DNA of 43,956 nt from Planctomycetaceae bacterium (lineage in GTDB: Bacteria > Planctomycetota > UBA8742 > UBA2392 > JABWBM01). Under the pieces are notes generated by a model. That model worked only from the letters and a program-made list of their open reading frames with translations. It did not search any database and was not told the DNA's origin. Below, piece after piece: positions 9,751-12,506 of the stretch. Location of the stretch: NCBI GenBank assembly GCA_013360495.1, contig JABWBM010000029.1, positions 1-43,956 of the forward strand, written 5' to 3'. Position 1 is the stretch's first letter. The number at the start of each line of letters is the position of its first letter. Both the position numbers and the translations under genes were made by a program.

Positions 9751-10251
9751 ATGCTCGGCTCCGTTGCCAGTCTCGTCGCCTCGCTCACGCTCATCGTGCT
9801 CCCGGTAAGCGCACCGTGCGTGTGCCACAGCTTCACGTTCTTCGGCGGCCTGCGGTGTAGCGCTGCGGGCGGCGGGAATTGCGAGGAACAAGCGAACGAA
9901 GTGGAACAGCAATGCTGCAGTCATTGCGGGAATGCCGCTCAATCGAATGCGGGCTCAGACCCGGTTCCCTTGAGTTCAGGCAACCCGTGTGAACATCAAG
10001 GACATGCCCCCAATCCTCATTGCCCCAATTCGAAGCACCCGGAAATTCACAGCCTCACGCTTCTCCAGCCCGCGCCAATGGCATTGATCGACGTAACACG
10101 AACAACCGGCAACGATACTGCACGATTCGTTTTGCTGGTCTTTTCCGCCTCATTCTCTTCTCCCGTGACAAACGCTTTGCGCCATGACAGCGCGCGCATC
10201 CTCGCCCCGCCACCATTGCGATTCATCGAGCCGGTCCGGCTGTTAATCTGA
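9751..10251 (+). CDS. Cys/His-rich exported small protein; putative metal-sensing leader ORF
   Basis: N-terminal hydrophobic segment, CVCH and CCSHC motifs, His-rich stretch CEHQGHAPNPHC, Pro-rich C-terminus RILAPPP...LLI. Confidence 0.65.
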   Translation: MLGSVASLVASLTLIVLPVSAPCVCHSFTFFGGLRCSAAGGGNCEEQANEVEQQCCSHCGNAAQSNAGSDPVPLSSGNPCEHQGHAPNPHCPNSKHPEIHSLTLLQPAPMALIDVTRTTGNDTARFVLLVFSASFSSPVTNALRHDSARILAPPPLRFIEPVRLLI

Positions 10252-10416: not shown

Positions 10417-11331
10417 ATGACTCATCGTCACTGAATCGTCCGGGGGGCGCTGCTCCTCATCGCCGTGGCGGGTCTCGCCGCGAATCTCTCCGCCCATGAA
10501 ACGCTCTTCGGGCGCGGGCCGCGCACCATGTGGAAGGGCGGCTTCGAACTGGAAATGGAGACCATGTTCGAGCAATCGAAGCGTTTCTACGAGGGCGACA
10601 ACACCGTCGCCAACCCTGACAACATGCGCATGTATGAAGCCACGTGGTCACCAGGGATAACCTACGGTGTGACGCGAGACTTCGCCGTCAAAGCGGAATT
10701 TCCCTTCATGTACGGCGTGATGACGGGCGAGTCCATGGGCCGCCACTCTCTCCTGAGCATCGGCAACTGGGAGGTGGGCGCCGCCTATCGCATCGATCCT
10801 TTGATCTTCGGTGGACCGCTGGTGTTCGAGGGAGGGAGCTGCCAGCTTCGTCTCTTTGGAAAGGCCGAACTGCCGACGGCTCCGGAACGGGAGAACGGCA
10901 TCAGCTTCGGCGAGGAGACCTTCACCTTCCTCGGTGGCGGCGCCATCGCCATTGGCACGGCGCGCCATTACTTCTGGGGCGAGGTGTCGGGCGACATCTC
11001 AACGGAAAAGGACGGCACGGGCATGGGTCCCGCGCTGCAGTCCCACGCCGCCTATGCCTGGCGCATCCAGGAGCTCAAGGACTACCGCGAGCTTGACATC
11101 ATCCTGCTCTTTGAACTGGACGTAGAGGCGCGCTCGAAGGGAACGATGAACGGCGATGACGACCCGGACAGCGGGCATTTCACCACGTACCTCGGGAGCG
11201 GTGTTCAGGTCAACTTCACCAACCTGATCTCGCTCAAGACCGGCTACAACGTTCCGCTCTACCGGCGCTACAACGGCGTGCAGTTGGCGGATGATGGCAC
11301 GTTCATGCTGATGTTCAGTTATTTGTTCTAG
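10417..11331 (+). CDS. Outer-membrane beta-barrel 'transporter' (MetA-pathway/PF13557-like), Met-rich, with an in-frame TGA at codon 6
   Basis: AAGGA RBS then ATG 10417: MTHRH-TGA-IVRGALLLIAVAGLAANLSA|HE... gives a signal peptide only if TGA 10432-10434 is read through. Body has GITYGVT, K.ELPT, DPDSG...YLGSGVQ, VPLYRRYNGVQL and a terminal Phe (YLF). ORF track starts at GTG 10465. Confidence 0.75.
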
Positions 11332-11332
11332 G

Positions 11333-11405
11333 CGTAGCGTCACGCGCCCTCGCGTGACGAACCAATCAAAAGATACAACGTCACGCGAGGGCGCGTGACG
11401 CTACG
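11333..11405. repeat. REPIN-like element, family B
   Basis: cgtagcgtcacgcgccctcgcgtgacg ... cgtcacgcgagggcgcgtgacgctacg is a perfect inverted pair. Confidence 0.8.
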
Positions 11406-11423
11406 AAGAAAGACGCGGTCACT

Positions 11424-11813
11424 ATGCAACGCTTTCAACATACGATTCTGATGGCCATGTTCATCGCCGGCTTCGCCGCGTGCATGAATATCTCCGTCGC
11501 GAACATCGATCCGCCCGCGGATCACAAACCCGTTACGAACGTGCCCACCGATCGAGACGCGATATACAAACTCAAAGTTAAGGGCGTGGACTGAGGCGAG
11601 TGAGCGACGGGCCTGATACAGGCTTTTGAATCCCTGGATGGGGTTCGCGAAGTTCGAACGGATATCACCGAGGCGATGGTCTATCTCCGCACGGAACCGG
11701 GAACGGTGCTTGTGTGGGAGGACGTCGCGACAGCCGCCGTGTCCTACGGTTATGGTCTCGCGGCGCTGGAGCTGGCCGACATCCCGTGGGAAAAGCTCTC
11801 GGGCGGCGAGTGA
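11424..11813 (+). CDS. Lipoprotein with heavy-metal-associated (HMA, CopZ/MerP-like) domain carrying a UxxU motif; candidate double-selenocysteine protein
   Basis: Manual translation: MQRFQHTILMAMFIAGFAAC (lipobox) MNISVANIDPPADHKPVTNVPTDRDAIYKLKVKGVD-TGA-GE-TGA-ATGLIQAFESLDGVREVRTDITEAMVYLRTEPGTVLVWEDVATAAVSYGYGLAALELADIPWEKLSGGE*. The TGAs at 11592 and 11601 (codons 57 and 60) occupy both Cys positions of the HMA G[M/V]xCxxC motif. Absent from the ORF track. Confidence 0.85.
11611..11652 (+). promoter_or_regulatory. Two tandem bacterial SECIS-like stem-loops
   Basis: GCCT-GATAC-AGGC (11611-11623; loop 20 nt after the first TGA) and GAATCCC-TGGAT-GGGGTTC (11628-11646, extendable to 11623-11652; loop 31 nt after the second TGA). 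Each has G at loop position 1 or 2. Confidence 0.6.
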
Positions 11814-11876
11814 CGGGGATGAGGACAAGCATCCGCCCTCTGGCATTGCGGGCCGGACGAGCTATCATTTCACCCC

Positions 11877-12233
11877 ATGACCGACCGGGTGCTCAACCTC
11901 GTGATCTTTGCCGGCGTACTCTGCGTCGTAGCAGGCGGAGCTGCTGCCGTCGGTTCGCTTTTCGGCCCGGCGCGCCGTGGCAAGACCAAAGAATCGCCCT
12001 ACGAGTGCGGTTCCCCAATCCTGAACGAAACGCGCAAGAAGTTCGACGTGCGTTTCTTCATGCTGGCGATGATCTTCATCCTCTTCGACATCGAAACCGT
12101 ACTCTTGATCCCCTACGCCGTTCAGTACGAACGCTTCGGCGTGGCCGGCCTCGTAATCGCCGGCATCTTCTTCCTCGGCCTCGTGGAATCGCTCATCTAT
12201 GCCTGGAAGAAGGGCGCGCTGGACTGGAAATAG
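11877..12233 (+). CDS. nuoA: NADH-quinone oxidoreductase subunit A (stand-alone)
   Basis: K.SPYECG, FDVRFFMLAMIFILFDIE, YAWKKGALDW. Confidence 0.92.
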   Translation: MTDRVLNLVIFAGVLCVVAGGAAAVGSLFGPARRGKTKESPYECGSPILNETRKKFDVRFFMLAMIFILFDIETVLLIPYAVQYERFGVAGLVIAGIFFLGLVESLIYAWKKGALDWK

Positions 12234-12375
12234 CGCCTGAAGCGCTTCTCAGGATTACCTTCGGATTTACGTTGCTCTCGCGCGTTTGGCAGGGGCGTCT
12301 TCACTTCATCAATCTGCTGCAAATCATCTCCGGAAACGCTCTCATACCGGTTCAATGAAAGAAATCGGTTCTTGC

Positions 12376-12424: not shown

Positions 12425-12506
12425 GTAGCGTCACGCGCCCTCGCGTGACGGACTATGGAAAATGTAGCTTGTAGAGAAGACGCCATGCGAGGGCGCATGG
12501 CGCTAC
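12425..12506. repeat. REPIN-like element, family B
   Basis: gtagcgtcacgcgccctcgcgtgacg ... cgccatgcgagggcgcatggcgctac. Confidence 0.75.

Follow-up and report, generated by a model that had tools for sequence, protein, structure and literature searches.

In this work, we analysed a window of 43,956 nucleotides (nt) from a Planctomycetaceae bacterium (assembly GCA_013360495.1, contig JABWBM010000029.1, positions 1 to 43,956), focusing on an unannotated gene at positions 11424-11813 of the forward strand whose frame contains two internal TGA codons. Our results indicate that this gene very probably encodes a genuine selenoprotein, namely an envelope lipoprotein with a heavy-metal-associated (HMA) domain, in which the ligand is held by two selenocysteine (Sec, U) residues in the motif U57-G-E-U60 (UxxU) instead of CxxC. 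This reading is carried by direct observations on the gene and its fold, the conservation of both TGAs, the RNA hairpins downstream of them, and selA, selB and tRNA-Sec. Furthermore, the features by which bacterial selenoproteins are recognized occur together at this locus, i.e., a conserved in-frame TGA with coding sequence on both sides, a stem-loop nearby downstream, and Cys homologues, here provided by the HMA superfamily.

The gene comprises 129 codons followed by a terminal TGA (ATG 11424 to TGA 11811-11813), and translation reproduced exactly the frame, coordinates and TGA positions that a preliminary description of this DNA had given for a hidden lipoprotein. The encoded protein starts with a signal peptide (11424-11483) ending FIAGFAAC; in the lipobox-like FAAC, Cys20 (11481-11483) is the presumed lipidated residue, and continues through a short Pro-containing linker into YKLKVKGVD-U57-GE-U60-ATGLIQAFESLDGVREVRTDITEAMVYL...SYGYGL, the codons around the motif being YKLKVKGVD-TGA-GGC-GAG-TGA-ATGLIQAFESLDGV... 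In an alignment with CopA domains, the TGAs of codon 57 (11592-11594) and codon 60 (11601-11603) fall on the first and second Cys positions, respectively, of the GMxCxxC motif. Callers of open reading frames (ORFs) miss the gene because translation table 11 breaks its frame into two ORFs of 56 amino acids (11424-11594) and 45 amino acids (11676-11813). The terminal stop is also a TGA, and the codon would therefore have two meanings inside one gene. The next gene in the window is nuoA; a second in-frame TGA (11820-11822) lies 9 nt past the terminal one, and the same frame reaches the nuoA start at 11877, an arrangement absent from the relatives, in which 13 of the 20 UxxU genes stop at TAG.

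The N-terminus of the UxxU protein looks like a lipoprotein signal, with Cys20 as the putative lipidation site, and the Pro/Glu-rich stretch behind it like a tether. This residue is invariant in 20/20 orthologues, where it follows a hydrophobic stretch and mostly ends the sequence LAGC, and Pfam LPAM_1 matches one family member. The HMA-like domain spans residues 46-118 (11559-11777). An AlphaFold2 run with a 20-row alignment gave for these residues a beta-alpha-beta-beta-alpha-beta arrangement (strands 46-53, 74-80, 85-90 and 111-118; helices 58-69 and 98-106) with a mean predicted local distance difference test score (pLDDT) of 82.1 and a predicted template modelling score (pTM) of 0.71, and the best Foldseek matches of the model were a Bacillus copper-binding protein, the CopA N-domain, CopZ, Atx1 and MerP (target TM-scores 0.74-0.82). 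At the sequence level, Pfam HMA (PF00403) matches the window protein at E 7e-4 and 17 of the 20 family members at E <= 0.01 (best 2e-07), and a hidden Markov model (HMM) of the family, run against the PDB, picks up HMA domains (CopA, CopZ and ZntA; E about 1e-5) and sets UxxU on their GMTCxxC motif. In the structure model, the two ligand residues lie in the loop ahead of helix 1. The earlier proposal of a hidden lipoprotein with an HMA fold, in which both metal ligands are Sec, is supported.

When 60 relatives were searched in six frames, 18 strong UxxU matches emerged, all of them in a sister family of the same order and each with two TGAs, and a profile of the protein family matched 21 of the 25 genomes of the order, again always with two TGAs. 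In the orthologue alignment (A1; 20 sequences, 22-38% identical to the window protein), both TGAs share the same two columns in every sequence; a partial 21st copy (L035), cut by a contig end, carries both as well. Two chance nonsense mutations, which the preliminary description had regarded as unlikely, are hard to reconcile with this pattern, and the orthologues carry TGA, not Cys codons, at both positions. The motif of the family is G-[MIV]-D-U-G-x-U-[AT]-T-G, and 16 columns are invariant, including the lipobox Cys20, G54, D56, G58, T62, G63 and W122. Past the TGAs, the frames stay open in 20/20 orthologues and stop 60-75 codons later, and over the 42 codons behind the second TGA, 180 of the 190 pairs had a nonsynonymous rate below the synonymous one (pN < pS), the median dN/dS being 0.43; the sequence 3' of both TGAs is under purifying selection, as had been asked of a functional gene. 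Finally, DNA contigs from two other studies (X10 and X11, covering 11413-12300 and 11446-12300) showed 0 differences to the window, as did RNA-library contigs of two runs (X16, X17) that cover both TGAs, such contigs not being proof of transcription. The independent contigs keep both TGAs, which answers the earlier concern about an assembly error.

As far as searched, the UxxU lipoprotein family is confined to one order of (wastewater) Planctomycetota metagenome-assembled genomes (MAGs). Of 201 genomes sampled from the phylum, the profile matched 10 at E <= 1e-6, all 10 in the order of the window, and a nucleotide pattern derived from the invariant columns that surround the TGAs was found at 20 places among 185,579 species genomes, 19 of them titled as Planctomycetota or Planctomycetaceae MAGs and one as 'uncultured bacterium'. 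A near-identical UxxU sequence occurs in activated-sludge communities. In public protein sets, the family appears only as N-terminal pieces that end at the first TGA and C-terminal pieces that start at an internal Met, one such fragment being named 'hypothetical protein'. Separately, other subfamilies of UxxU HMA proteins were observed in the phylum (L033:971-1408(-), L034:428-823(-), L041:279-704(-), L042:2499-2921(+) and L036:1492-1845(+)), with Pfam HMA scores of 32-39 bits for the two that were scanned; in L036, from a distant family, the UxxU HMA gene stands directly behind a channel homologue (27% identity).

Regarding the decoding of TGA, the window assembly contains selA (558 bits) and selB (345 bits), each above its cut-off, and blastn with the tRNA-Sec of relatives located a tRNA-Sec fragment, comprising the 3' 68 nt with the UCA anticodon, at the very end of contig C163 (15241-15310). 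ARAGORN and Rfam detected no full tRNA-Sec in the window genome, the Rfam matches being ordinary tRNAs; tRNA finders miss the selC of this genome because the contig end cuts the gene. All five near-complete relatives tested carry selD and a tRNA-Sec, the latter scoring 69-73 bits where the gathering score is 47. A total of 1213 long open frames in the window genome end in TGA (511), TAG (417) or TAA (285), and since TGA ends 511 of them, as well as the UxxU gene itself, there is no genome-wide reassignment of this codon. As an additional observation, the selD of relatives G005, G007, G010, G018 and G021 (e.g., L067, L068) holds one in-frame TGA, and its product is likely a selenoprotein itself.

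Two hairpins lie on the forward strand downstream of the TGAs and are candidate selenocysteine insertion sequence (SECIS) elements for codons 57 and 60, respectively: hairpin 1 (11609-11625), with 7 pairs and a 3-nt loop, starts 14 nt after the first TGA, and hairpin 2 (11628-11646) has 7 pairs and a 5-nt loop in the window, whose own fold shows both. Across the 20 sequences, 99.3% of the cells of hairpin 1 are paired, with compensatory changes at two of its seven pairs (G-C in 15, A-U in 4 and C-G in 1 sequence at one pair; C-G in 18 and G-C in 1 at the other), and hairpin 2 is paired in 85.8% of its cells, with compensatory changes at two pairs and a register shifted by one base in three relatives. 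When the partner columns were slid, pairing fell to 30-57%. Synonymous recoding was used as a control because the hairpin region is coding and hence under protein constraint: all 7 pairs of hairpin 1 are formed in 19 of the 20 sequences versus 5-11% of the synonymous recodings of those 19, and the 45 nt past the second TGA fold better than their recodings (median P 0.005; 19/20 at P <= 0.05), these sequences being related rather than independent trials, with synonymous divergence near saturation between most clades. Both hairpins are kept by compensatory and synonymous changes, as expected of SECIS elements. Search rules for bacterial SECIS elements expect the apical loop roughly 16-37 nt after the UGA, a range that hairpin 1 fits for the first TGA only and hairpin 2 for the second only, which suggests one SECIS hairpin per UGA, with hairpin 1 serving codon 57 and hairpin 2 codon 60. 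In the mechanism that we propose, each UGA would be recoded by SelB with its own hairpin, the lipoprotein would be exported to the cell envelope and tethered there by Cys20 and the flexible linker, and its two selenolates would serve as periplasmic ligands of a soft, thiophilic metal ion.

The lipoprotein may work together with a 12-stranded outer-membrane beta-barrel channel encoded just upstream (10417-11331, forward strand), which table 11 calls only from GTG 10465. The channel gene shares 39% identity with its counterpart ahead of the orthologues, and it likewise precedes the UxxU gene in the loci of the relatives. Its AlphaFold2 model is a 12-stranded barrel (pLDDT 83.8) that matches FapF and the COG4313 channel in Foldseek (TM 0.70-0.76); the protein reaches no family cut-off, and a weak Pfam Phenol_MetA_deg match was obtained for the channel of a relative. 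The four genomes of the order (of 25) without a UxxU gene also lack the channel gene; one of them, the sole other member of the family to which the window genome belongs, lacks selA too, and the other three have selA and are 82-84% complete. From the loci at hand, the UxxU gene is always paired with the channel gene, its apparently obligate partner, and this co-occurrence of the genes would agree with a possible binding between channel and lipoprotein.

In the sister family, a MerR-family regulator (101-128 bits, just below the ZntR, MerR, CadR and CueR cut-offs) stands directly upstream of the module in all relatives with enough flank, and a second HMA lipoprotein (46-49 bits on Pfam HMA) is encoded downstream of the UxxU gene. 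This second protein is UxxC in four genomes (L026:1100-1470(-), L021:1880-2290(+), L024 and L028) and CxxC in the others (e.g., L029:1791-2198(+) and L020:1872-2258(+)), so that, as predicted from the genes, the paralogue shows a Sec/Cys interchange at the first ligand position. The wider flanks of three relatives hold housekeeping genes only (thiolase, peptidyl-prolyl isomerase and a pyridoxal phosphate enzyme); therefore, the conserved unit consists of the regulator, the channel and the two HMA genes. The module of the sister family would add to the UxxU protein a second, (C/U)xxC lipoprotein and a regulator of the heavy-metal type, and these neighbours, judged by their sequences, favour the handling of thiophilic metals.

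Several observations weigh against the reading of the window gene as a di-Sec metal-binding lipoprotein. The preliminary description had looked to Sec machinery in the source genome for support, and this was borne out by selA, selB and a tRNA-Sec with UCA anticodon, present in the window assembly as a fragment only, and not by selD, which was not found in that assembly; the missing selD is weak evidence because the assembly is 91.8% complete in 256 contigs. The expected Pfam HMA match was obtained at the E value given above, and its 20.3 bits fall below the gathering cut-off of 24.8. The window protein is also the most divergent member of its family, with 108.6 bits on the family profile (with two TGAs) versus 152-204 for the other full-length members, and the hairpin statistics of the window are the weakest of the set (P 0.06-0.08, being 0.078 for the 45 nt, and z -1.66 versus shuffles). 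No Rfam family matches hairpins 1 and 2, the scan of 11300-11900 having returned only chance miRNA-type hairpin matches on a palindromic repeat upstream of the gene. A full-length Cys orthologue of the UxxU family was not found, and the classical Sec/Cys orthologue pair is missing; among the single-domain matches listed from 1.84 billion representatives, no full-length Cys form exceeded ~55 bits. Furthermore, the window genome carries neither the MerR regulator nor the second HMA gene at the UxxU locus, and a redox role of a diselenide would be equally compatible with the sequence.

Three other explanations were considered. A decaying HMA gene with two nonsense codons, in which translation stops at codon 56, or an error of the assembly, would account for the N- and C-terminal fragments that are all the public gene calls hold, and for the absence of selD; against this stand both TGAs, kept in 21 genomes, the RNA structure kept by synonymous choices, the 0 differences among independent contigs and the purifying selection on a frame that stays open past the TGAs. 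The conserved TGAs, the matching contigs and the selected open frame therefore exclude an assembly error and a pseudogene, to which we assign a negligible probability. It is also highly improbable that TGA is read here outside the Sec pathway, by near-cognate read-through or by a lineage-wide reassignment. The lack of a full-length tRNA-Sec and of selD in the window assembly would agree with such decoding; conversely, TGA serves as a stop in the 511 long frames mentioned above and in the UxxU gene too, the two internal TGAs sit exactly on both Cys ligand positions, and selA, selB and the tRNA-Sec fragment are present in a lineage whose relatives carry the whole machinery.

The function of the UxxU site is a distinct question, since it might form a redox-active diselenide/diselenol centre, or carry selenium or another chalcogen, instead of acting as a metal chaperone. 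In an oxidising periplasm, a pair of selenols separated by three residues would readily form a diselenide, and the window copy lacks a nearby metal-sensing regulator. Passages of the review PMC9312934 state that most predicted bacterial selenoproteins are redox proteins. The fold of the UxxU protein, conversely, is that of HMA domains and not thioredoxin-like, and the module of the relatives lies directly behind a ZntR/MerR/CadR-like regulator (110-128 bits) and beside a canonical HMA lipoprotein (46-49 bits). On balance, we regard the redox or chalcogen-carrier role as unlikely, and binding of a metal by the two selenolates as the preferred function of the lipoprotein.

The partner channel presents a conserved TGA of its own, which we regard as the most novel lead of this analysis. 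If the start is ATG 10417, its signal peptide (10417-10485, forward strand) contains an in-frame TGA at 10432-10434: the ATG is followed by four codons, the TGA, IVRGALLLIAVAGLAANLSA, and then the conserved mature N-terminus. Such a TGA occurs in 18 of 21 loci (the window, L018-L020, L022-L032, L035, L041 and L042), and its distance from the cleavage site differs between lineages: it lies 22 residues ahead of the site in the window, 10 in two loci and about 16 in the remaining fifteen. The three loci without it have a sense codon instead, which is TCA in L021. When the TGA is read through, a canonical signal peptide results. Where it lies at -10 (two loci), a downstream start cannot yield a signal peptide because just nine residues remain after the TGA, and the read-through peptide equals in length the uninterrupted signal peptide of a genus-mate. 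A hairpin occurs 11-13 nt downstream of the channel TGA in many loci, with weak z-scores in single folds; RNAalifold returned no consensus structure after this TGA and the comparison with synonymous recodings yielded 0.18 as the median P, so that a SECIS element is not established there. A literature search on selenocysteine within signal peptides together with SECIS found nothing.

The channel TGA could be a site of Sec insertion, of another kind of read-through, or the end of a short leader ORF. Because the signal peptide is cleaved off, the UGA-encoded residue cannot matter in the mature channel. We tentatively consider, as a possibility that is more doubtful than not, a selenium-gated two-gene envelope module, in which the UGA of the channel would act as a translational checkpoint and the tandem SECIS hairpins of the lipoprotein gene would each serve one of two UGAs 9 nt apart; in such a module, the channel would be made only when Sec can be inserted, i.e., when the di-Sec lipoprotein can be completed. 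If the UGA in the channel signal peptide is decoded, the Sec codon would have gained a regulatory role that is new.

HMA domains in which both ligands are Sec are already known, and the novelty implied by the preliminary description for a UxxU metal-binding protein did not hold. NCBIfam contains NF041115 (UxxU_metal_bind, 'metal-binding (seleno)protein'), in which Sec takes the place of the two ligand Cys of an HMA-type domain, and a UxxU 'putative mercuric reductase / metal-binding protein' with 2 Sec is included in the lists of PMC9312934 and PMC13188914. The novelty is therefore moderate, since UxxU metal-binding selenoproteins have been curated and reviewed. The window protein resembles NF041115 in having UxxU within an HMA domain and aligns to model positions 7-37 across the motif; however, it scores 20.5 bits against an equivalog cut-off of 95. 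The same model gave 21.7 bits for one of three relatives (family A), no match at E <= 0.001 for the other two, and 26.7-43.8 bits for four UxxU paralogues. The window family differs from NF041115 by its lipoprotein signal, a tether rich in Pro and Glu, a C-terminal extension that is conserved and contains an invariant Trp, and the pairing with a channel. What is new is a separate, divergent family with a lipoprotein architecture, an obligate channel partner and a tandem-hairpin arrangement.

Other known systems share some of these traits. MerP and CopZ/Atx1 (PF00403) share the fold and likewise carry their ligand pair in the beta1-alpha1 loop, and MerP is exported to the envelope, as would be the UxxU protein; nevertheless, these proteins are CxxC and soluble, whereas the window protein is UxxU and presumably lipid-anchored. 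A MerP selenoprotein appears in a list of the Global Ocean Sampling survey (PMC2398784), and the MerP-like and MerT/CopZ selenoproteins, as presented in the passages that deal with them, are likewise envelope or transport proteins in which Sec is likely to coordinate a metal, in other architectures and motifs (a MerT fusion; a CU motif). None of these selenoprotein families matches the window protein at E <= 1, weak matches being obtained to paralogues. The partner channel is closest to the COG4313 channel (PDB 4rl8) and the amyloid-subunit transporter FapF (PDB 5o65), with which it shares the 12-stranded barrel at 12-15% sequence identity, the in-frame TGA in the signal peptide being a feature of the partner. 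Literature searches found nothing on selenocysteine and heavy metal-associated in bacterial selenoproteins, nothing on selenoprotein families in Planctomycetota as judged by title and abstract, and, for Olavius algarvensis selenocysteine mercuric reductase, only the reviews PMC9312934 and PMC13188914.

These results add a well-supported, unannotated di-selenocysteine family to the short list of UxxU proteins; current gene calls break each member of this family into two 'hypothetical' fragments. With two UGAs 9 nt apart and two hairpins, the family offers a natural system for the study of SelB at closely spaced Sec codons. In addition, a lipid-anchored site with two selenolates should have a higher affinity than thiolates for Hg, Cu, Ag or Cd, which may be relevant to metal handling in activated sludge.

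Other features around the locus are of minor weight. Opposite the UxxU gene, a minus-strand ORF of 168 amino acids (11340-11846) without a Pfam match was rejected as a shadow ORF because it lies opposite a conserved and selected forward frame, and a promoter and terminator scan was uninformative. Upstream of the channel gene, an ORF of 166 amino acids (9751-10251, forward strand) with a hydrophobic N-terminus and a Cys/His-rich composition had no Pfam or NCBIfam match, and may or may not be a gene. Between the channel and UxxU genes lies the palindromic repeat (11332-11405), composed of two inverted copies, at which metagenome contigs break; its self-complementary core of 22 nt, resembling repetitive extragenic palindromic (REP) elements, occurs also at 12427-12448 and has 50 exact copies across the assembly.

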